NCBI GenBank assembly: GCA_021796435.1 | Contig: JAJYXM010000016.1 | Location: 118,625-182,624, forward strand | DNA from: a bacterium | GTDB taxonomy: Bacteria > Patescibacteriota > Patescibacteriia > 2-12-FULL-60-25 | DNA: 64,000 bases | Direction of reading: 5' to 3' | Part shown: piece by piece, positions 33,514 through 64,000 of the stretch | Numbering within the stretch: position 1 is the first letter of the stretch | Layout: each line of letters starts with the position of its first letter | Position numbers and translations under genes: made by a program | The notes under the pieces: generated by a model | What the model was told of the DNA's origin: nothing | Database searches by the model: none | Seen by the model: only the letters and a program-made list of their open reading frames with translations

Positions 33514-33606
33514 TAGTAGGCTGATGGATTGTCATCTCGGCCAGCGCGGAGGGATTTTCCAACTAGAAGATTTCTCGACTGTGCTCGAAATGACATTAAG
33601 AGACAT

Positions 33607-33852: not shown

Positions 33853-33939
33853 ATAGAATTGTCATCTCGACCGAAGCGGAGAGATCTTCCGGATGTATAG
33901 TCCCTTGAAAAATCTTCTAAACCGTGGCAGCAGTAAGTA

Positions 33940-34230
33940 ATGGGTAGGATTTACTGGGTGTACATACTTACGAATTGCGTGAGCAGCGTCTTTTATATCG
34001 GCGTGACGAATGATTTGGAAAGGAGGCTATTTGAGCATAAAAGTCATGCGGTTCACGGTTTTACAGATAAATATCAGATTAACCGTTTGATTTATTTCGA
34101 AGAGACTACGGATATCATGGCTGCGATTGAGAGAGAAAAGCAGTTGAAGAGGTGGAGCCGGAGTAAGAAAGAACGGTTGATAGCTACGTTGAATCCATTT
34201 TGGAATGATCTGTCGGATGGTTCCCAATAG
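33940..34230 (+). CDS. GIY-YIG nuclease-superfamily protein
   Basis: IYWVYIL...FYIGVTNDLERRLFEHK matches the GIY-YIG motif. Confidence 0.7.
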   Translation: MGRIYWVYILTNCVSSVFYIGVTNDLERRLFEHKSHAVHGFTDKYQINRLIYFEETTDIMAAIEREKQLKRWSRSKKERLIATLNPFWNDLSDGSQ

Positions 34231-34394
34231 GAAGATTTATCGACTGTGCTCGAAATGACATTTTAGAATAAATTGTCATCTCGACCGAAGCGGAGAGATC
34301 TTCCAGACGGAGTGATTCGCCTGTCCGTCCTTCGAGTAGAAGATTTCTCCACTCAGTCGCTAGGCTCCTTCTGTCGAAATGACATTAAGCTTTT

Positions 34395-35780
34395 ATGTCT
34401 TTTTCTCACTCAAAAAATCTCATTGTCCACCTCGACATGAATTCGTATTTCGCGTCGGTGGAGCAGCAGGCTAATCCTACTCTGCGCGGTCGGCCGTTGG
34501 GCGTATGTGCTTATCTTCATAAGAAGGGTTGCGTTATAGCGGCGTCGATCGAGGCAAAGCGTTTAGGCATGAAGGTCGGGATGTCGGTGGAAGAGGCAAA
34601 GATGAAGGTGCCGGGTGCGGTGTTTGTGCAGAATGATCCGCCTAAATATCGTGCGGTGACGTCGCGCGTGTTCGGGATTTTGCATGAACTGACGGACTGC
34701 ATGGAGCACTATTCCATCGATGAAGCGTTCCTCGACATGACGGGTTGGTACCGTGATGCGGCGGAAGTGGCTTGGGTGATGACCCGCGCGCGGCGACGTA
34801 TCCGTGACGAGGTCGGGGATTGGTTGCGCTGTTCCATCGGCATCGCGCCGACGAGATTCTTGGCCAAGACGGCATCTGACATGGAAAAACCGAATGGTTT
34901 GGTGGTGATAGACTACGATAATCTGGATGAGATCCTGGCTAGTTTGGACCTGCAAGATGTGTGCGGTATCGGGCCACGCATCAGTCGACGATTGAAGCGC
35001 CTGGGGATCGAGACGCTGTTGGACCTGAAGCGTTATCCGGTCGGAAACCTGATGCGAGCTTTCGGTAAGAATGGGTTTTACCTGTGGTCTAAGGTAAACG
35101 GCTCCGAAGTGGAGAACGTGACGTCATCAGATGCGGCACCATCGCCTAAATCAGTAGGGCATTCGTATTGCGTCCCTGACAGGGTGAACAAGGAAGGGAA
35201 GGTCTTGGCTACGCTGGTCAAATTGACGGAGCGTGCCGGACGCAGATTGCGTGCCCTGGGTCTCGTGGCTGGGTCGGTGTATGTGAACGTGGGTTTCAGG
35301 AACAGTCTCGTCTCGCCGTTGACCGAAGTGCGTCCGTCGTTCTGGCAGCCGGGGGCGGGTGAAGGAGGCACGTTGTATTCGCTGTTGGATGAACCGGCTT
35401 CGGATTCTTTCACCCTAGTCGGTGCAGCGACGGAGTTATTGCGTGAATTGTGGCATGGGGAAAGGGTGAACTTTCTAGCGGTGACGCTGACAAATCTGGC
35501 GCCGCCTTCACGGCAAGAAAAACTGTCTTCCTGTGCCGCTGTCATCCCGGACTTTATTCGGGATTCAGAAGCTAGATCCCGGGTCTTTGCCCGGGATGAC
35601 GTGGGTACGATTTGTTGGAACGGCGAGGTTGATCGTAAGCGCCTAGCCTCGAAGGCAGCTGACTTGGTGCGCGACCGTTATGGGGACGAGGCGATAGTCT
35701 TGGGTAATATGTTGGGCTTGGGCGATGAGGCGCCGGATAGGATCGGGTTCAGGAAAGTGGAAGGCCTAGAGTTCAGGTGA
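34395..35780 (+). CDS. dinB: DNA polymerase IV (Y-family) with a roughly 100-aa C-terminal extension
   Basis: LDMNSYFASVE...; Y-family palm, fingers and little-finger order. The ORF continues about 100 aa beyond the usual DinB end. Confidence 0.85.
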   Translation: MSFSHSKNLIVHLDMNSYFASVEQQANPTLRGRPLGVCAYLHKKGCVIAASIEAKRLGMKVGMSVEEAKMKVPGAVFVQNDPPKYRAVTSRVFGILHELTDCMEHYSIDEAFLDMTGWYRDAAEVAWVMTRARRRIRDEVGDWLRCSIGIAPTRFLAKTASDMEKPNGLVVIDYDNLDEILASLDLQDVCGIGPRISRRLKRLGIETLLDLKRYPVGNLMRAFGKNGFYLWSKVNGSEVENVTSSDAAPSPKSVGHSYCVPDRVNKEGKVLATLVKLTERAGRRLRALGLVAGSVYVNVGFRNSLVSPLTEVRPSFWQPGAGEGGTLYSLLDEPASDSFTLVGAATELLRELWHGERVNFLAVTLTNLAPPSRQEKLSSCAAVIPDFIRDSEARSRVFARDDVGTICWNGEVDRKRLASKAADLVRDRYGDEAIVLGNMLGLGDEAPDRIGFRKVEGLEFR

Positions 35781-55540: not shown

Positions 55541-56032
55541 GCGGGGAGGATACAGCAAAGGAGAGTTTTTTCATTTGTTCCGGAACTCGCTTGTTTTTTG
55601 TCATCCCGCACTCCCGCCCGCAACGCCTTGCTTGCATGGCGGGCGCGGTGATGCGGGATCTGGATCCAGGGTCTTTGCCCGGGACGACAGGCTGAGCAAA
55701 AGAAAACAAAAAAATCACCCCGATGGATTCATCTCGCGATGGATCATCGGGGTGATTTATTCCCGGACCGGAAGCTGCAAAGAGCTGCCACGCCAAGTAA
55801 ACGGCTGTACCCATGTGAGGAGAGAGAATCCCTCAATGAAGAGGGAAACCACGGATATTACCATTAGAAGCGTACAACACTTCGCAGCTCCCGGGCCGGG
55901 AATCCGCATACGGTAGGTGGCGCTACATTCTTTGTCAAGATGAAAACTTCGCATCCTTCTTCGGTCAACCGTCAGTATGGCGGATCGAAGGAGGTGTCCG
56001 ACCGGTAAGGGAGCCCGGTCGGAAGAGTCGTC

Positions 56033-56740
56033 CTAGTATTGGAGCGGATCGGAGGCTTCGACGAAGCGCAACAGCTTGTCGATGCTGATCCACTTGTCGT
56101 CGCAAGTGGCGTGCGCTTTGCGCAGGGTCTCTTCGGTACTTGCGCAGCGGGAGAAGCCGGCGGGAAAGCCGGAACCGTCGGTGCGCTTGAAGAGCGGGAT
56201 CCAGCCACGCACGGAGTATGGGCGCAGGTAGGCCTCGTCATCGTGCTTGTAGAACGGCGCCGGGATGATGGCGAAGATTTCGCGGTCCAGACGCATCTCA
56301 GGACGGCGCAAGATGATGGACAGGATGAAAGCCAGGATGAAGTGGGCCCAAGCCCGGAAGTCGTGCCACGAAGCAGGCGTCGCGATATCACGCGGACGAT
56401 ACAGGATGAACACCACCGTGGGGTGCAGATCGATAGTCCGGATGAGCGGGCGCAAGTTGGCGCTTCCGCGGAGTGCCGGACTCGAGATGCGCTCCTCGTC
56501 GGGAAGAGCGATACCTTCTTCGTCCGCAGACGCTACATCGGACGAAGTCGGAGGACTGCTCTTGCGCAGGAAGAGCTCTGAGGCATCGATGAGGACGCCG
56601 TCCGATTGCCTCGCGCGCGATTTTTGAGTCACGTTCCCACTCTTCATCGTACTGCTCCAGACGAATCCTAGGACGTTGGAAATGAAAAGATCCCTTAAGT
56701 CCTTCATAGCATGATGTTGCCCTTTTGGCAAGGTATGCAC
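56033..56740 (-). CDS. hypothetical protein
   Basis: ORF in a GC-rich minus-strand cluster. Confidence 0.4.
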   Translation of the reverse strand: MHTLPKGQHHAMKDLRDLFISNVLGFVWSSTMKSGNVTQKSRARQSDGVLIDASELFLRKSSPPTSSDVASADEEGIALPDEERISSPALRGSANLRPLIRTIDLHPTVVFILYRPRDIATPASWHDFRAWAHFILAFILSIILRRPEMRLDREIFAIIPAPFYKHDDEAYLRPYSVRGWIPLFKRTDGSGFPAGFSRCASTEETLRKAHATCDDKWISIDKLLRFVEASDPLQY

Positions 56741-56808
56741 CTATGGAAGATTTAAGGGATCCCGCAAAGCCGAGAGATTGAGCTTTGCGGAACGGTTGTG
56801 AGACGGGG

Positions 56809-58236
56809 TCAGTCGAGCGCGTCGGCGGTAGCCGGCGTGAACTCGACATGCGTTTCGGTGGCAGGAGCTGCTTCGGCCTTGGTGGCTTCTGCAGCGGTTT
56901 CGGTGGCGGGAGGCTCCGCGGTCGCGCCTTCGGGCTGCTCGGTGGCAGCGTCGGCAGCGACTTCGGGGCTGCTGTCGGGTGAACTGTCGTCCGCGGCGGC
57001 GACGGCTTTGGGGCCATCGTCCTCCTCGGAGCTGTCTTCGGTTGCATCGCCTGCGCCTTCCTCCGCCGAAGCGGATTGGGTCGTGGAATCGTCCGAAGCA
57101 CCCGTCGTGGCGTCGTCGTTGACTGCGGCGGCGTCGGCGGATGAGGTACTTTCGTCCGTACCGGCGAGCAGGTCGTCGAGGTCCACCTTCTCGATTCCTT
57201 CGTTGTCCTTGTCGGCGGTGATGGCCTCGGCGGTGCCTTCGAGGAGTTTGTCCAAGAAAGCGACGCTATCTTCGGGGGTGGGGCACATGGAGAGCCAGCT
57301 CACCATCAAGCTGAACCCCTCCACCGTCGGCTCCTCATTGGAGTAGTCGAAGCCTGGGAGGATGAGCGTCTGATAGGTCCAGATGGCGACCTTGATCAGC
57401 GGCAGCTCGATGATGAAGATGAGCCCGCGTCCATCGCGGCCCGCTGCTCCGACGGAGATCGGCCGATCCGTAGGCGCTCGTCGCGCGCCGCGGGATGGCA
57501 TGTAGCCCACGATGACGTGTGTCGCGACCGTGCTCTGGCCACGGCTGTCGTTGACCACATGGCCGGCCAGCCGAACGAACTTTGTGGGTCCGTTCTTCCG
57601 GCCGAAGATCTTGAAGGTCTCGCCCACGGGTCGGTTCATGGCCCGGCTGAGGTCGTACAGGTTGACCCTGTATGACTCGCCCCGCTTGATGGGCACACTC
57701 ACCTGGCGCCGATTGCCGTCACGGTCCGTGCGGTCGATCATCTGATGGGTGTCGGGCCTGATCACCACGACGTCCATCACGCCCTCCTTGAGGGCCGCCT
57801 TGATCTGCTTGCCACTGGATCGGATTGCCGGAAGCTTCAGGGCGTCGTCCGGGGATTCCTGATCGAATCTCCCGTACTCGAGGTCGAGGTAGCGCTCGTA
57901 CTCCAGGAGCGCAAGCTCCTGGTAGTGGTTGAACTGTCGCCGAGCCTTCTCGTCGAGCGCCGCGATCTGTTCCGGTGCGACGAGTTCCGGATCCAGACTG
58001 AGCTGCATGATGGACAGCTCGCGGCTGGAAACCAGAACCGGGAACCCGCCGCTGCACTTCGGGACGTTGCTGACGACCAGCCGCATACCGGGCGGGGGTG
58101 TGATTCCAGGCACCAGATTGCTCAGGCCCGTGGTGAACAGCTGCCGCACTCCGTTCGGGGCGGGACAGGTCTGCTGCTCGAGCGCGTCGTAGAGCTTGCG
58201 ATTCTCGGCCCGCTTCTCTTCTTCGGTCTTCTTCAT
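56809..58236 (-). CDS. hypothetical protein with a long acidic Ala/Asp/Glu/Thr-rich C-terminal tail
   Basis: Start taken at MKKTEEEK. Globular N-terminal region of about 340 aa followed by a roughly 130-aa acidic low-complexity tail. Confidence 0.45.
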   Translation of the reverse strand: MKKTEEEKRAENRKLYDALEQQTCPAPNGVRQLFTTGLSNLVPGITPPPGMRLVVSNVPKCSGGFPVLVSSRELSIMQLSLDPELVAPEQIAALDEKARRQFNHYQELALLEYERYLDLEYGRFDQESPDDALKLPAIRSSGKQIKAALKEGVMDVVVIRPDTHQMIDRTDRDGNRRQVSVPIKRGESYRVNLYDLSRAMNRPVGETFKIFGRKNGPTKFVRLAGHVVNDSRGQSTVATHVIVGYMPSRGARRAPTDRPISVGAAGRDGRGLIFIIELPLIKVAIWTYQTLILPGFDYSNEEPTVEGFSLMVSWLSMCPTPEDSVAFLDKLLEGTAEAITADKDNEGIEKVDLDDLLAGTDESTSSADAAAVNDDATTGASDDSTTQSASAEEGAGDATEDSSEEDDGPKAVAAADDSSPDSSPEVAADAATEQPEGATAEPPATETAAEATKAEAAPATETHVEFTPATADALD

Positions 58237-58916
58237 GGTGAACTCTCCTGTGTGACGGGGGATACCCGCCAAAATGATTTCCTGCGTTTGTGTCTCAAAA
58301 CCGTTGAGTTCCGTGCATTGCCGCCGTTGCGGTTACACGGAAGAAGTTGTTCAGTTGTCGATGTGCGCAGGTCCGATACGCCGTGCCGAAGCACTTCGTG
58401 TCAGGCCTGTTCGATGATGATCGAGCCGAGTCAGGCAGTAGCCTTATCGTCTCCTGGTTTACCCCACAGGGGTGACATAAGGGTTATCTTACCGCGGCTT
58501 TGCGGTGTGAGACCCTTAAAGATTGTGAGGAAGTGGGAGGATGATTTCAGGTCATCTCCCGCAACAGGATCGAAGGCTTTCGATTCTCTTGCGGGAGAGC
58601 GAACGCTGTGTGGTTCGCCCAAGAGGTAGGGTTCGCGTCAGTTCGGGTGTTCGACGGGGCCGAATACCTCCTGCAGCGTAACTTCGTCGAAGTTGCTACA
58701 CGAGGAGGCGGTTCCCCTCAAGAATGCAAGGTCGTCGTCTGAGCTCTGGAATGCGTTGACGGCGTCGCCAGCGCTCCAATCGACAAGCTCGCTGCCGGGG
58801 TAGTCCTCGGGGTTAGGCGCACCCGGATGCAGGGATTCGAATCTACTCGCTGGCTTCTGCGAACTTCTTGAGTCTGTCCTTCTGGGACCCTTCTTTTTCG
58901 CCACTTCAACTCTCCT

Positions 58917-59201
58917 TTATCGCCGGGACTTTCCCCATTCCCGGACTTTTCGCCACTGTTCCATCCCATTCTGCAACGTGCCGAAGTGAGACGGTTCGTG
59001 GCTGGAACGCGATGTGCTGATGATGAGCAGAGCCGCGAGGCAAATGCTCACGAGAATGGCGACGAGCGTTGCGGCTTCGTCGCGGAACAGCCAACCGAAA
59101 ACGATTAGAAGAAAAACGCCCGCAATCACTACTGACGCCTTTTTCAACATTGAAAGAACGCCTCCGTAAGTAACGTCCTCGGGTCCGGCGAGGTCCGGCA
59201 T
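58917..59201 (-). CDS. small membrane protein
   Basis: 94 aa, one TM helix. Confidence 0.3.
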   Translation of the reverse strand: MPDLAGPEDVTYGGVLSMLKKASVVIAGVFLLIVFGWLFRDEAATLVAILVSICLAALLIISTSRSSHEPSHFGTLQNGMEQWRKVREWGKSRR

Positions 59202-59866
59202 GGCGCGGACCTTAATGGATGGTCCATTAGGGCCGGACGAACACCGGAACCGAGGAAATTAGGACTTACGTGTTTGGCGCATAACTTTGTTAGTTCTGTT
59301 TCCAAACACGAAAGTCCAAAGTTTAGTTATTATCCGGAAGGAGATGGAGGCGGCCCGCATCGGCAATAACCTTTGCAGGCCGAATTGGTTTGTATTCACG
59401 TTTCGGCACAAAGGCCTGACGCGAACGAGGAGAGCGGCCCGGACCGGTCCAGCGAAAGCCGGAGAAGTCGTTTGGCCATAGGTTTTTTACCTCCATTTCC
59501 TTCGGGGTAATTTTGAGGCGCCATGAGCCCCATCAACATGTATAAGAACAATACGGTAATCTACCAGTTTTTGCAGTAAATGTCAAGGGCAGTTGAACAA
59601 AAAGCGTGGAAATATCATGAAAGTCATATTTTGTTTAAATTAAGCGTTTTTGTGGATTTTTGCCTGAATCTAGGCCTTAATGTGATGTTTAAGACAGGTG
59701 ATTAATTGATAAATACCAAGATGATTAAACAAAAAAATGTTATTTTGCTGCGGGGTTGTTGTGATTGAGTGAACCTCAATAGTTGTTACGCTAATAGTGC
59801 AATTGTTAGATACCCCACTAACAAGATGACCGCTATGTTGAATAGATTCAATATCAAGAATTTAGT

Positions 59867-60175
59867 TTACGAATAGATAGCGAGCAACATCAAGAATATA
59901 ATCGGGATGAGGGCGTAACGCCCCCTAGCGCTGTATAGCGCGACGATTATTCCGATGATGAGAATGAAGGCAAGGAAGCTTAAGGCGAGCGCACCTAAAA
60001 CTATGAATAGCTGCCAAAAGTATACCAAGAGGCACACGGCAAGTACTGCGCCTAAGATACACAGGGATATGCGCCAAAAGAGGAAGGCGAGTACGATCAC
60101 GACCAATGCAATGGTAGCCCCTAAGAGCCACGGCACAAGCGCACAGGCGATGATAAATAGAAGTAAGGCTATCAT
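59867..60175 (-). CDS. small membrane protein
   Basis: 102 aa, 3 TM helices. Confidence 0.4.
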   Translation of the reverse strand: MIALLLFIIACALVPWLLGATIALVVIVLAFLFWRISLCILGAVLAVCLLVYFWQLFIVLGALALSFLAFILIIGIIVALYSARGRYALIPIIFLMLLAIYS

Positions 60176-60412
60176 ATAATTGTTAGAATTGATCTTCCCT
60201 AGGCGCGCCGTTTAAGGCATCCACGAAAGATTGTGCGTTAGCTGTTGCTACCTCCATTATGGTGGCCTGTTTAGACATTCTCCTGATGGACGCAGAGGGG
60301 ACGCCGCAGTGCCAAGGCACGCTTTGTCCGGTGGATCAGTACTTTCATGGAGAACCAGCGACATCGAGTAAAACTCGACAGGCCGGTTCTCATAATTTTC
60401 CTCTCCTATTTC

Positions 60413-60568
60413 TCTCCTCCACGTCTATCGGGAGAATCGGCTCCCGTTTCTAGCGAATAACGGCGCTCGTCCCGTCGGATGACGGGATCAGAATCTCCGC
60501 GACTCGCTCCGCGTACGTTTGAGTACGCACCTGCCTGTCGGCAGACAGGTCTAGAAACGAAAGCCGCA
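60413..60568 (-). ncRNA. candidate structured RNA element, copy 1
   Basis: A 15-bp closing helix (60439-53 with 60551-65) encloses three hairpins. The element is paralogous to 61691-61836 and the helix shows compensatory changes between copies. Confidence 0.4.
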
Positions 60569-60678
60569 TATCAAGTGTTCTCCAGTCTAGTTTTAAAATT
60601 CCTGCCTGAGGCTGTGATGGGTATCACAGACTCGGGGGGATTGCCGAATTAGGGGTTCGGCGAGGAAGGGGTGGTGGG

Positions 60679-60924
60679 TTAGCGCTCGGGCTCGACGACG
60701 ACGTCGTTGAGTTCGATCTCGCGTTCGCCGTTGTTAGCGACGGCGACTGTCCCGGCCTTGGTCTGGACAACGAGAGTTTCGTTGAGCTCGATCAGCTTGC
60801 CGGTGGCGGTGTCGGGACGTGACGCGTCCACAAGAGTGTGGAACATCTGATTGACGCCGATGGCAGCGAGGCTGCCGACGCAAGGGGCGATGCACACGAG
60901 GCACAGAAACAGTGTCTTTTTCAT
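60679..60924 (-). CDS. small secreted protein
   Basis: AGGGGAGG SD then ATG; signal peptide MKKTLFLCLVCIAPCVGSLAA. Confidence 0.45.
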   Translation of the reverse strand: MKKTLFLCLVCIAPCVGSLAAIGVNQMFHTLVDASRPDTATGKLIELNETLVVQTKAGTVAVANNGEREIELNDVVVEPER

Positions 60925-61025
60925 CAGAACCTCCCCTTGAGATCGGAAGTGCTAACTTCTGAGCTCGAGGGGATTGCCGAATTAGGGGTTCGGCAAAGGT
61001 GTTCAGGTGGGAAGGTGCGGGGTGG

Positions 61026-61265
61026 CTAGTGACCCTTGCTGCGGCGGTGACGTCGGTGCGAGGCAGTCGAGGAGAACGCGGTTCCGTTATCGGGGGCGCG
61101 GCGGCGTTCGATGCGGTACGAAACCACATCAGACCCGCGCATCTCGACCGCGTTGACCACCATCTGCGGCGTCTCGACGTGCGGAGCGCGCTGACGTCGC
61201 GCTGGCCAGGGAGCGTCGGGGTCGTTGTGAGTGACACTGACTCCGCAATGCGTGTCGTACGGCAT
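61026..61265 (-). CDS. small basic protein
   Basis: AAGGAGA SD then ATG; 79 aa. Confidence 0.35.
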   Translation of the reverse strand: MPYDTHCGVSVTHNDPDAPWPARRQRAPHVETPQMVVNAVEMRGSDVVSYRIERRRAPDNGTAFSSTASHRRHRRSKGH

Positions 61266-61690
61266 GGAGCGTCTCCTTGTGAAGGTGGTGCAGGGACGAA
61301 GGATATTCGCCACTACGGTCAGACTTTGGTGACAGCTGGCTCAAAATCTTGAATGTTTCATGATCTTGAGCCAGCGCTGGAACAGAATCGTTCCAGCGAG
61401 GAGGAGTCTTGGCGACGGAAGGTTGGAGGCAAACACCTTCTGTTTCTCTTGTTTAGAGAGTTTTGGCCCTGCTTAACAGGGCACCCCCGAGTTTTAAGCC
61501 CCGTATCTAGGTGGGCGCCGCCAAAAATTTCGTCAGAATTTCTCCCGACAGATGTAGAGGGGATAGTCGCTGACATAAAGTCGGCGACACATCCGCGGAA
61601 CGTATGTTCAGAGTTCGCCAGCCGAAGCCGGCGATGTCTGACCTGTCCCGACCATCCCAGGATCCGGGTTCGGACTTAGGATGGGTTTTT

Positions 61691-61836
61691 CCTCCTCCAC
61701 GTCTGTATGGAGAATCGGCTTCCGTTTCTGGCGCATAACTTCGTCAGAATCTGTGCGACTCGCTTTGCGTACGTTTAAGTACGCGTCGCTCATTGCTCGA
61801 TTCTTCCTCGTTCTGCATCCAGAAACGAAAGCCGTG
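61691..61836 (-). ncRNA. candidate structured RNA element, copy 2
   Basis: Closing helix 61717-31 with 61819-33; shares the GCGTACGTTT(G/A)AGTACGC hairpin with copy 1. Confidence 0.4.
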
Positions 61837-62377
61837 ATTTTGTAAATGTTCGTTGAGCCTTTTTGCTTACAGGATTTTAGTTTCACCCAGGACGACACGA
61901 AGGGGATGTGAAGAGGCGAGAAGCCTTTCACATCCTTAGTCGCTTACTGCCAGAGTCGCCAGTAAATCGGCTTACGCCGCAACCGGCTGGTCTGGGTTCT
62001 TCGACCCTCTACGACAGATGCCGTGAGGCACTGCCGTAAGATCTCTCTCCTCCGCGTCGTCATGGGCGACTTAAAATAGACGCTTTCGGGCGTCTCGAAG
62101 GGCATCAAACATAAACCGGTCGGTTTTGGTTTGATTGGCGATTGGCCTCGCTCTCCTTTCGAGACTAGTTCGCTTTTAAATTGCGTGCTAACTGACGGAG
62201 TCCTCCATTAGTTAACGAAACACTATAGCACGTATTGATGGTTTTGTCAAGGGGTAAAGCAACAAAAGTATGTATTAATATTTGTCTAATTTTAGCTAAA
62301 TATTGGTTAGAAGCAAATTTTTATGTTAATTATCGCATTAAATTATACATTGCAGGATAAGCAAGCAAATTCTCCTC

Positions 62378-62406
62378 TTGACGAAGTTTTGATAATTTGA
62401 CATAAT
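62378..62406 (+). promoter_or_regulatory. sigma70-like promoter TTGACG-17-CATAAT for rpoB
   Basis: Good -35 and -10 elements with a 17-nt spacer in an AT-rich region about 400 nt upstream of the rpoB ATG. Confidence 0.5.
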
Positions 62407-62809
62407 CCGCGCACGAGATGCGGCTTGCCAGATGAGAGTAAAACTGCAGAATTCTCACCTGACCGGTCGTAACCCACTTCAATCTTGAATGGTTACGTCG
62501 CTAAAATAACGTGAAAAAGCAACGGATTTGACATCCGTGATTTTTGCGTCTGCGGCTGCATCTAGATTTCCACATTGTGTGGATGTCAGACAAAAGAAAA
62601 CGCCCTTTTCCCCAAATTATTAACTAACAGCGTACAGCTTGTCTTGTAGGCGCCTGGTCCGCACCGACGGCACGGTCCCAAAAGGATCATGGCCCGAACG
62701 GGATTGCTGTATATGTCTGTAGCAAAATATTTGCATGCCAAATTCAGTCTTCCGGCGCCAAGCCCCCAAGGAGCTTGAACGTCGATACTTTACGGCGTCA
62801 CGTGACGCA

Positions 62810-64000
62810 ATGGCCTTGCCGGATCTCATCGAGATCCAAAAACAGAGCTATCGCTGGTTCCTCGAGACAGGGATCCGCGACTTGCTCAAAGAGATCTCGC
62901 CGATCAAGGATTTCATCGGCCGCGACCTGGAACTCTCGTTCGTGGATTACTTTTTGGACGAGCCTAAGTTCGACGAGAAGACGTCGCGCGCCAAGAACAT
63001 CACTTTCGACGCTCCGTTGCGCGTCAAGACGCGCTTGGTGAACAAGCGTTCAGGGGAATCGAAAGAGCAGGAAGTCTATCTGGGCGACATCCCGGTCATG
63101 ACGGATCGCGGTACGTTCATCGTGAACGGCATCGAACGCTGCGTGGTTTCGCAGCTGGTGCGTTCGGCAGGTGCATTCTTCACCGCTGAGCTTTACCGCA
63201 ACCGTCGTTACTATGGAGCCAAGGTCATACCGGATCGCGGTGCCTGGCTCGAATTCGAGACTGACCAGAATAACGTCATCTGGGTGAAGATAGACCGCAA
63301 GCGCAAAGTGGCCGCTACGTCGCTTTTGCGCGCTTTCGGTTACAGCACCAATGAAGAGATATTGGAGCTTTTCAAGGACGCAGACATCCATCCGCTCAAC
63401 CACTATATAGAAGCGACGATAGGGAAGGATGCCGCAAGCAACGAAGACGAGGGGCATATCGAGGTCTACAAACGCATACGTCCGGGAGACATGGCGACTG
63501 CAGACAACGCGAAGTCGTTGATCCATGCCATGTTCTTCAAGTTCGAGCGCTATGACCTGGGTGCCGTCGGCCGCTACAAGTTCAACCAACGTTTCGGTTT
63601 GCCGGTCGTGGTCGAAGATGTGGCCAAAGAAGAGAACCGCATCCTGACCAAGGAGGATCTCGTCCTGATACTGAAGGAGATCATCCGTCTGAATAACATG
63701 CAGGAAGAACCGGATGACGTAGACCACTTAGGAAATCGTCGCGTACGTGCCATCGGTGAATTGGTGAAGGGCCGCTTCCGCATCGGTTTGGCTCGCATGG
63801 AGCGCATCGTCAAGGATCGCATGTCTACGCAGGACATCACCTTGATTTCGCCGGCGAAACTCATCAACGCACGTCCGGTCATCGGCGCGGTGCGCGAGTT
63901 CTTCATGAGTTCGCAGCTTTCGCAGTTCATGGACCAGACGAATCCGCTTTCCGAATTGGAGCATCGTCGCCGTCTGTCGGCCATGGGTCCTGGAGGTCTG
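62810..64000 (+). CDS. rpoB: DNA-directed RNA polymerase beta subunit (5' part; runs off the window end)
   Basis: Translation MALPDLIEIQKQSYRWFLETGIRDLLKEISPI...GNRRVRAIGELV... is an unmistakable RpoB N-terminus. Not in the supplied ORF track because no stop falls within the window. Confidence 0.9.
   Translation, partial: MALPDLIEIQKQSYRWFLETGIRDLLKEISPIKDFIGRDLELSFVDYFLDEPKFDEKTSRAKNITFDAPLRVKTRLVNKRSGESKEQEVYLGDIPVMTDRGTFIVNGIERCVVSQLVRSAGAFFTAELYRNRRYYGAKVIPDRGAWLEFETDQNNVIWVKIDRKRKVAATSLLRAFGYSTNEEILELFKDADIHPLNHYIEATIGKDAASNEDEGHIEVYKRIRPGDMATADNAKSLIHAMFFKFERYDLGAVGRYKFNQRFGLPVVVEDVAKEENRILTKEDLVLILKEIIRLNNMQEEPDDVDHLGNRRVRAIGELVKGRFRIGLARMERIVKDRMSTQDITLISPAKLINARPVIGAVREFFMSSQLSQFMDQTNPLSELEHRRRLSAMGPGGL

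Follow-up and report, generated by a model that had tools for sequence, protein, structure and literature searches.

An apparently undescribed set of structured non-coding modules beside rpoB in Candidatus Uhrbacteria

Two diverged copies of an element of roughly 150 nt lie at 60413-60568 and 61691-61836 of the 64-kb stretch of bacterial DNA analysed here (the window), in an island of small open reading frames (ORFs) next to rpoB, and they raise the question of what such a pair might be. The preliminary description proposed a riboswitch-like cis-regulatory leader or a small RNA. Both copies are present at these positions. Each interval, however, joins parts of two modules: a hairpin, D1, and one strand of the closing stem of a larger module, D2, which follows D1 without a spacer. 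The element set is real and structured, and it is apparently undescribed. On the reading that we prefer, long minus-strand transcripts would start at two conserved promoters and contain the modules as folded RNA domains, D1 being an accessory hairpin; our confidence in this reading falls a little short of even.

The resemblance between the copies depends on how gaps are treated. The aligned columns hold 107 matches and 21 mismatches, an identity of 84% where about 80% had been given, and counting the 46 gap columns lowers it to 61%. Two diagnostic blocks, AGAAACGGRAGCCGATTCTCC and GCGTACTYAAACGTACGC, are unique to the two copies in the 64 kb, with a chance expectation of 0. The closing helix, described as 15 bp long, exists and has 16 bp; in copy 1 it reads CGGCUUUCGUUUCUAG / CUAGAAACGGGAGCCG on the minus strand. 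The paired change in this helix from A:U in copy 1 to G:C in copy 2 is real, and the mismatches that remain on the plus strand are G-U pairs when read on the minus strand. Folding favours the minus strand, as had been argued (-82.5 vs -68.1 kcal/mol for copy 1 and -70.1 vs -57.6 kcal/mol for copy 2), with shuffle z-scores, minus vs plus, of -6.2 vs -3.6 and -8.9 vs -5.0, respectively. One of the two internal hairpins said to be conserved, GCGUACUYAAACGUACGC, is common to both copies, whereas CCTGTCTGCCGACAGG occurs in copy 1 only. A protein-coding reading was rejected, since the frame of the common blocks differs between the copies, the indel lengths are not divisible by three and stops occur. 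The D1 copies of the window are the following.

61716-61834, minus strand: D1 copy 2 (D1c2), a rod-like hairpin of 119 nt, closed by a 16-bp helix (CGGCUUUCGUUUCUGG/CCAGAAACGGAAGCCG), abutting D2c2 without a spacer
60438-60566, minus strand: D1 copy 1 (D1c1), 129 nt, abutting D2c1 without a spacer
59262-59317, minus strand: D1 copy 3 (mini-D1), closing helix retained, ~65 nt of the interior deleted

Stems and one apical hairpin are common to the copies, and the interiors differ by indels. D1c1 and D1c2 share the closing helix (16 bp plus an extension) and the apical GCGUAC..GUACGC hairpin, and D1c1 has two additional inner hairpins. Over six sequences, 97% of the cells in the D1 closing helix are paired and both sides have changed in 5 of 16 pairs; sliding the helix partner by 1-3 columns as a control reduced pairing to 27-43%. 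D1c2 is 86% identical to the copy at site 3 of a related contig, L090, which is the level of true orthologues. Between these two sequences 35 pairs are invariant, three are compensatory, three are of the G-U type and none is broken, with 9 differences in paired regions and variation at 11 of the 38 unpaired columns. Folds, frames and indels, these pair counts and the Rfam scan reported below thus support the description of a structured, strand-specific, non-coding element without a known family.

The GGAGG-rich stretch reported after each copy (60413-60437 and 61691-61715) is present, but it is the 5' arm of the D2 stem and not a tail of the element. In a repeat search, a block occurring twice about 1262 nt apart, at 60273-60301 and 61535-61563, proved to be the reverse complement of 60413-60436 and 61691-61714. 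The GGAGG arm is the 5' side of a helix of ~24 bp, and since its partner lies 110-130 nt further downstream, the unit is at least 300 nt long and has two domains. Folds of 60255-60580 and 61517-61848 consist of two adjacent domains, D1 and then D2 (z -7.8 and -10.9), with a D2 closing stem of ~24 bp, AUUCUCCCGAUAGACGUGGAGG / CCUCUGCGUCCAUCAGGAGAAU, around 110-130 nt of more hairpins. Once this stem signature was known, D2c0 and D2c3 turned up, which brings the D2 paralogs on the minus strand of the window to four, each 160-190 nt long and with a closing stem of 20-26 bp.

61882-62070, minus strand: D2c0, four-way junction, closing stem GUCGCCCAUGACGACGCGGAGG / CCUUCGUGUCGUCCUGGGUGA, directly after the leader terminator (z -8.4, -8.8)
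61539-61715, minus strand: D2c2, four-way junction, its 5' arm being the GGAGG-rich stretch of copy 2
60277-60437, minus strand: D2c1, two long inner hairpins, its 5' arm being the GGAGG-rich stretch of copy 1
59329-59511, minus strand: D2c3, four-way junction in the leader behind promoter P2

In three of these modules, then, the closing stem and three hairpins meet in a four-way junction, and the inner closing pairs of the D2 modules are GGAGG:CCUCC, in which GGAGG resembles a Shine-Dalgarno (SD) sequence. A descriptor built from these features asked for inner GGAGG:CCUCC pairs or their wobble variants, pairing at 18 or more of 22 stem positions, and 90-210 nt of interior. Its minus-strand matches in the window are the four D2 modules, with 18-21 of 22 stem positions paired, and one match in a low-complexity coding region; a shuffled window should give about 0.25 matches, and 5 weak ones came from 760 kb of unrelated loci. 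All modules fold far below shuffled sequences (z -5.5 to -10.9), and D1c1, D1c2 and D2c0 prefer the minus strand. A terminator-like alternative hairpin at 61550-61531 overlaps the 3' arm of D2c2 only and is not a general feature of the modules.

Relatives were found through three proteins, those of rpoB, ORF A and a 475-aa protein of the island. D2 modules are conserved in five related Uhrbacteria contigs. At its sites in close relatives, D1 is absent or another palindromic repeat stands in its place. The D2 modules are conserved more strongly than the intervening small ORFs, and their changes mostly keep pairing. Compared with L091 (GCA_031082005.1), D2 modules are 90-100% identical, ORF A 58-71% and rpoB DNA ~88%; compared with L089, the locus is 98-100% identical except for the 3' two-thirds of ORF A (63-87%), ORF B (55-72%) and a replaced segment. 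Constraint in the island thus falls on the non-coding modules, and variability on the small ORFs. In the orthologous D2 sets, 37 of 482 paired columns vary and 46 of 229 unpaired ones (Fisher p 4e-6), and the 25 variable pairs comprise 10 compensatory, 7 one-sided (G-U type) and 8 broken cases. Over seven paralogous and orthologous sequences, 89% of the cells in the D2 closing stem are paired, and both sides have changed in 9 of 22 pairs. The paralogs have the closing stem alone in common, their interiors being unrelated to each other and conserved among orthologs. In L085, D2c2 is still a four-way junction, with inner helices that largely differ in sequence.

The distribution of D1 is different. 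L091 is syntenic and carries D2c0, D2c2, D2c1 and D2c3 without D1 at any of the three sites; both full-length D1 positions are occupied by another hairpin repeat, of the GTCRTTCCGAGC family, and the mini-D1 segment is also missing. L090, a contig of 1626 nt, has D2c1 without D1 (ggaacaaaacc runs directly into ATTCTCACGATAGACG), D2c3, and, at the site that mini-D1 occupies in the window, a full-length D1. L089 is 93% identical over the region and has everything except the segment matching window positions 60277-59700, which is replaced. L085, whose rpoB protein is 87% identical, has promoter P1, the leader with its terminator and one D2 directly before its ORF A homologue, and no D1; its sister contig L095 has an additional D2-type 5' arm after ORF A. 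The more distant L097 has a different small-ORF island, in which the descriptor scan found one D2-like module with a four-way junction directly behind an intrinsic terminator. Guided by rpoB synteny, the island was not found in L086, L087, L098 or L099; in L098 and L099, more distant Uhrbacteria, recA abuts rpoB and the whole island (window 55600-62300) is missing. D1 is thus dispensable, because relatives keep its flanks without it, and its presence and absence, replacement and deletion derivative form a pattern that fits a mobile or recombining hairpin. D1c1 and D1c2 also share ~8 nt (GAACAYTT) upstream and the D2 arm downstream, which makes gene conversion between paralogous D2 sites a simple route.

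The minus strand is likely the functional strand, since the neighbouring genes and two conserved promoters are so oriented. The called genes from 56033 to 61800 are all on this strand, and all are short except one of 475 aa. The promoters and the leader of the first are these.

62222-62250, minus strand: promoter P1, sigma-70-like TTGACA-17-TATAGT with TG, 11/12 consensus, divergent from rpoB
62072-62218, minus strand: leader of ~140 nt, ending in an intrinsic-terminator-like hairpin (62095-62078) and preceding D2c0
59558-59586, minus strand: promoter P2, sigma-70-like TTGACA-17-TAGATT with TG

P1 is conserved in L085, L089 and L091, and P2 in L089, L090 and L091. Read on the minus strand, P1 is followed by the leader and terminator, D2c0, D1c2, D2c2, a 270-nt stretch, ORF A, a small hairpin, ORF B, the same small hairpin, D1c1, D2c1, a 102-aa ORF, P2, D2c3, mini-D1 and then ORFs of 94, 88, 475 and 204 aa.

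If the modules are domains of long transcripts, the island, which is specific to this strain group of Candidatus Uhrbacteria, would produce minus-strand RNA with two kinds of folded module. The D2 modules, placed in the 5' leader and between short ORFs, would serve in cis as architecture of the RNA, and their closing stems would be processing or stability determinants, as RNase III-type substrates or as protective structures at 5' or 3' ends. These stems, of 20-26 bp, offer the ~20 bp or more of near-continuous double strand that is the length of an RNase III-type stem; they would have the length and quality of such substrates and would hide the SD-like GGAGG. The modules might then segment and stabilise a long transcript that depends on terminator read-through, or be excised from it as stable RNAs. 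D1, which stands at the 5' foot of two D2 modules and, as a deleted remnant, downstream of a third, would add a further hairpin, accessory rather than regulatory; transposition, or gene conversion seeded on the common D2 5' arm, could have carried it from site to site.

RNase III processing stems are one of the two close analogues of these modules. In the intercistronic sites of phage T7 and the processing stalks of rRNA operons, long, near-perfect RNase III stems that are mutually related in sequence bracket a functional RNA or separate the short cistrons of a polycistronic transcript. The D2 stems of 20-26 bp are likewise nearly perfect, with small internal loops. Unlike the T7 and rRNA stems, they are predicted processing stems, and they enclose branched domains of 110-145 nt.

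Several observations weigh against the transcript-domain reading. Transcription and processing of the modules are predictions, and an intrinsic-terminator-like hairpin lies between P1 and the first module, which the polymerase would have to read through to transcribe the array. Neither RNase III nor any other partner was identified, the genome itself not having been checked for RNase III. The structures were predicted from the same sequences in which pairs were counted, 3-7 distinct, related ones per module, so that the numbers are supportive and no proof, and 7 of the 8 broken D2 pairs fall in D2c3. D2c3 and the D2c2 modules of L085 and L091 fold as well or better on the opposite strand; the strand preference is therefore not universal, and selection may act on single-stranded DNA hairpins. 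Finally, between paralogs the stem sequence is more conserved than the interiors, which is also a signature of protein-recognised inverted repeats.

The last two points lead to the strongest alternative, in which D1, and possibly D2 too, are non-autonomous mobile DNA palindromes of the MITE (miniature inverted-repeat transposable element), REPIN or PATE type, moved or copied as single-stranded DNA hairpins. The helices would then be kept through transposase recognition or hairpin-templated repair and not for an RNA function. We consider this unlikely, and at the same time a serious rival, because several modules fold equally well on both strands and the stems are conserved above variable interiors. 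D1 is present or absent at orthologous sites, a palindrome of the GTCRTTCCGAGC family stands exactly at the two D1 positions in L091, D1c2 resembles the L090 copy at another site, the internal-deletion derivative retains the terminal helix, and three D2 modules lie directly behind terminator hairpins. As in MITEs, D1 has a 16-nt terminal inverted repeat and insertion polymorphism (across the window, L089, L090, L091 and L085). However, no D1 end has a target-site duplication, the flanks gatatg/attctc, aaatca/attctc, acttt/taatt and gctta/gacta containing no direct repeat. The window has only three D1 copies, in one 2.6-kb stretch and one orientation, and a covariance model found no further copy in 127 kb (the 64-kb window, about 4% of the source genome, and ~63 kb of relatives). 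No transposase or autonomous insertion sequence with D1 ends occurs within the window, and the peptides that spurious ORFs over D1 would encode are singletons in a set of 15 billion proteins, with no relatives in 1.84 billion representatives. HMMER, queried with a spurious 61-aa D1/D2 peptide, returned only the query and two longer proteins that match weakly (33-35% identity, 5-9 matched stretches each) and were not inspected. The D2 modules are fixed at orthologous sites in all relatives and are more conserved than the neighbouring genes, interiors included, which also weighs against this account. D1 was rejected as a REP or REPIN element too: those are high-copy palindromes of 20-40 bp with a GTAG or CGTC head and a RAYT gene, and D1 is 119-129 nt long, lacks such heads and is low-copy.

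Transcribed palindromic repeats, such as the Correia elements of Neisseria, enterobacterial ERIC and pneumococcal BOX, are the other close analogue. They too measure 100-150 nt per module, with inverted-repeat ends that are conserved around a core that may vary or be deleted, in a transcribed intergenic position (here a predicted one), present or absent among strains and folding as RNA hairpins. The modular build of BOX recalls the arrangement of D1 and D2. In contrast to these repeats, D1 has no TA or other target duplication and is confined, within the 127 kb, to three copies in one island and one orientation, with none dispersed, while D2 is larger, branched and fixed at orthologous sites, and the host is a bacterium of the Candidate Phyla Radiation (CPR). 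Correia elements have been described as bound, cleaved or protected by RNase III and as affecting the genes beside them (PMC2649163).

A further alternative is that the modules are matured from a long transcript into stable, trans-acting small RNAs of ~120-190 nt, for example sponges for a protein or for ribosomes through GGAGG/CCUCC, with the stems as excision sites like the stalks of rRNA processing. Compact closed domains with stems of 20-26 bp would suit such RNAs, as would interiors that are conserved among orthologs, differ between paralogs and exceed the adjacent ORFs in conservation. Nonetheless, no individual promoters or terminators were found for the modules, no candidate for a partner protein emerged (neither Pfam nor PHROGs had a match, and an AlphaFold model was unusable), and processing is purely a proposal; this account is rather doubtful. 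D1 may be a stand-alone small RNA, although no promoter or terminator brackets it. A broader proposal is similarly improbable: an undescribed RNA-centred system in which a promoter and an attenuator-like leader would gate ~180-nt four-way-junction RNAs with SD:anti-SD-like stems, acting on ribosomes or on the translation of the adjacent hypervariable small proteins, membrane or secreted, in a CPR episymbiont, with D1 and the other hairpins exchangeable.

The first suggestion of the preliminary description, that the ~150-nt element is a riboswitch-like cis-regulatory leader of a downstream ORF, is largely refuted by comparison with relatives and now seems very improbable. The element is structured, on the coding strand, and upstream of an SD-like sequence and, in copy 1, of an ATG, and the D2 closing stem sequesters GGAGG. 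As in the SAM-I and cobalamin riboswitches, D2 has a multi-helix junction closed by a P1 stem, an SD-like sequence in that stem and a leader position behind a promoter. Yet D1 is missing at orthologous sites whose flanks are kept (site 1 of L090, three sites of L091, and L085), and the copies precede unrelated sequence with no conserved ORF downstream. The 40-codon ORF reported after copy 1 (60271-60393) does exist, surrounded by D2c1; it is unconserved, reading ATG TGA in L090 and L091, where nothing coding follows this position, and copy 2 is at least 270 nt from ORF A. There is no match to an Rfam aptamer, the interior architecture differs between the D1 copies, and, unlike in the two riboswitch classes, the four D2 paralogs have unrelated interiors and no constant downstream gene, and D1 is dispensable.

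It is equally hard to credit that the palindromes are attC-like recombination sites for the exchange of hypervariable small-ORF cassettes. With integron attC sites they share strand specificity, an imperfectly palindromic form, stems that are conserved, a terminal structure that varies, and a place between small variable ORFs; L089 matches the window at 55-87% identity in ORF A and ORF B and at 98-100% in their flanks, and ORF B is absent from L090 and L091. The polarity is nevertheless wrong, since the 5' arm carries GTT and the 3' arm AAC, and a RYYYAAC / GTTRRRY core is missing; the D1 helix reads GTTTCTRG...CYAGAAAC on both strands. The island has no integrase gene, its proteins being without Pfam matches, and the divergence breakpoints fall inside ORF A and at a small GCCGAA hairpin, not at D1 or D2. 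Type I toxin mRNAs such as hok and aapA1 are compact folds of 160-400 nt, often in tandem paralogs, whose paired ends sequester the SD sequence, as D2 with its tandem paralogs would hide an SD-like one, but this candidate was rejected because the 40-codon ORF within D2c1 is not hydrophobic and is reduced to ATG TGA in relatives, the D2c3 ORFs are frame-shifted between relatives, and no small ORF is conserved.

The claim that the element belongs to no known family stands. The Rfam 15 scan gave no family at the gathering threshold or at E<=10; its only gathering-score matches in the window are two tRNAs elsewhere, and the four unrelated weak matches at E<=10 over 58800-62800 lie on neither D1 nor D2. 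ARAGORN found no tRNA or tmRNA genes over 58000-63000, and BLAST against phages and plasmids gave no match. Exact patterns were directed at the D1/D2 junction and the D2 arm and were probably too specific: GAAACGGNAGCCGATTCTCC gave 3 matches in viral_contigs and 7 in genome_contigs, all short, by chance and in coding DNA of unrelated taxa, CGGCTTTCGTTTCTRG gave 73 chance matches in viral_contigs, and TTCTCCNNANAGACGTGGAGGAG gave one chance match within an msrA-like gene in metagenome_contigs and none in viral_contigs. The D2 array, of locus-confined, branched modules of ~180 nt with SD:anti-SD-like closing pairs, matches nothing found, and the family is narrow as far as seen. Pfam and PHROGs returned nothing usable for eight island proteins, and an AlphaFold2 model of the 475-aa protein, built with 4 homologues, was unusable (pLDDT 41). 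An integrated filamentous phage, considered for the island on account of its small membrane ORFs and the low-complexity tail of the 475-aa protein, was rejected for want of a PHROG or Pfam match. A template and variable repeat pair of a diversity-generating retroelement was also rejected, as the copies differ by indels and the eight scanned island proteins contain no reverse-transcriptase domain.

CPR (Patescibacteria) genomes are small and gene-dense, and here ~3 kb beside rpoB is mostly non-coding and yet outconserves the protein genes embedded in it, which points to a function at the RNA level. To our knowledge, almost no regulatory RNA has been described for this lineage. The four paralogs, the simple descriptor, the promoters, the attenuator-like leader and the hypervariable ORFs offer a concrete target for covariance-model and metatranscriptome work. 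Should the modules be only selfish palindromes, they would still document the swapping of hairpin repeats at fixed positions in reduced genomes.

The gene that bounds the island, rpoB, starts at 62810 on the plus strand, and its closest named homologues are from Candidatus Uhrbacteria. The leader behind P1 may itself be attenuator- or riboswitch-like, or a small RNA gene; it has no Rfam match. The 5' half of its terminator has an alternative partner upstream, GUCUCGAA (UCUCGAU/AUCGAGA in L085), and a GGAGAG motif is also found in the L097 leader. Further along the minus strand, the hypervariable cassettes between D2c2 and D1c1/D2c1 comprise the following features.

61265-61026, minus strand: ORF A, 79 aa
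60924-60679, minus strand: ORF B, 81 aa, with a signal-peptide-like N-terminus
60995-60970 and 60662-60637, minus strand: small hairpin GCCGAACCCCUAAUUCGGC, after ORF A and after ORF B

Between 60679 and 61218, identity to L089 is 55-87% in the 3' two-thirds of ORF A and throughout ORF B, and 98-100% in the flanking non-coding DNA, a divergence of the kind that cassette replacement, or strong diversifying selection on these small proteins, would leave. The small hairpins contain an identical 23-nt block, GCCGAACCCCTAATTCGGCAATC on the minus strand (60637-60662 and 60970-60995), and recombination between the two blocks would remove ORF B, as in L090 and L091. The segment 59700-60277, with a multi-pass membrane ORF of 102 aa (60175-59867), is found in the window only, with an unrelated short sequence in its place in L089, L090 and L091. 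At 59204-59261 on the minus strand, 3' of mini-D1 and before the 77/94-aa ORF, there is another hairpin of ~85 nt (CCUCGGUUCCGG ... CCGGACCCGAGG), which is missing from L091 along with D1; the ORF itself probably starts at its second ATG (MLKKASV...).

Palindromic repeats of ~65 nt (GTCATYYCGRGC ... GATGAC) are dispersed in the window at 33528-33597, 33858-33891, 34221-34305, 35541-35600 and 55650-55688, and also occur in L089 (3576-3618), L090 (608-678) and L091 (7549-7610, 8356-8470 and 8654-8719). Members of this family in L091 occupy exactly the D1 positions of the window, and the family's arm CGACCAACGTGGAGGGAT resembles the D2 5' arm CGATAGACGTGGAGGAG. On the other side of P1, the region 62378-62809 of the plus strand contains a putative rpoB promoter (TTGACG-17-CATAAT) and a 5' leader of ~400 nt that is 82-100% identical to L091 per 60-nt window; the stretch 62414-62473 is 100% identical, above the coding part of rpoB (~88%).

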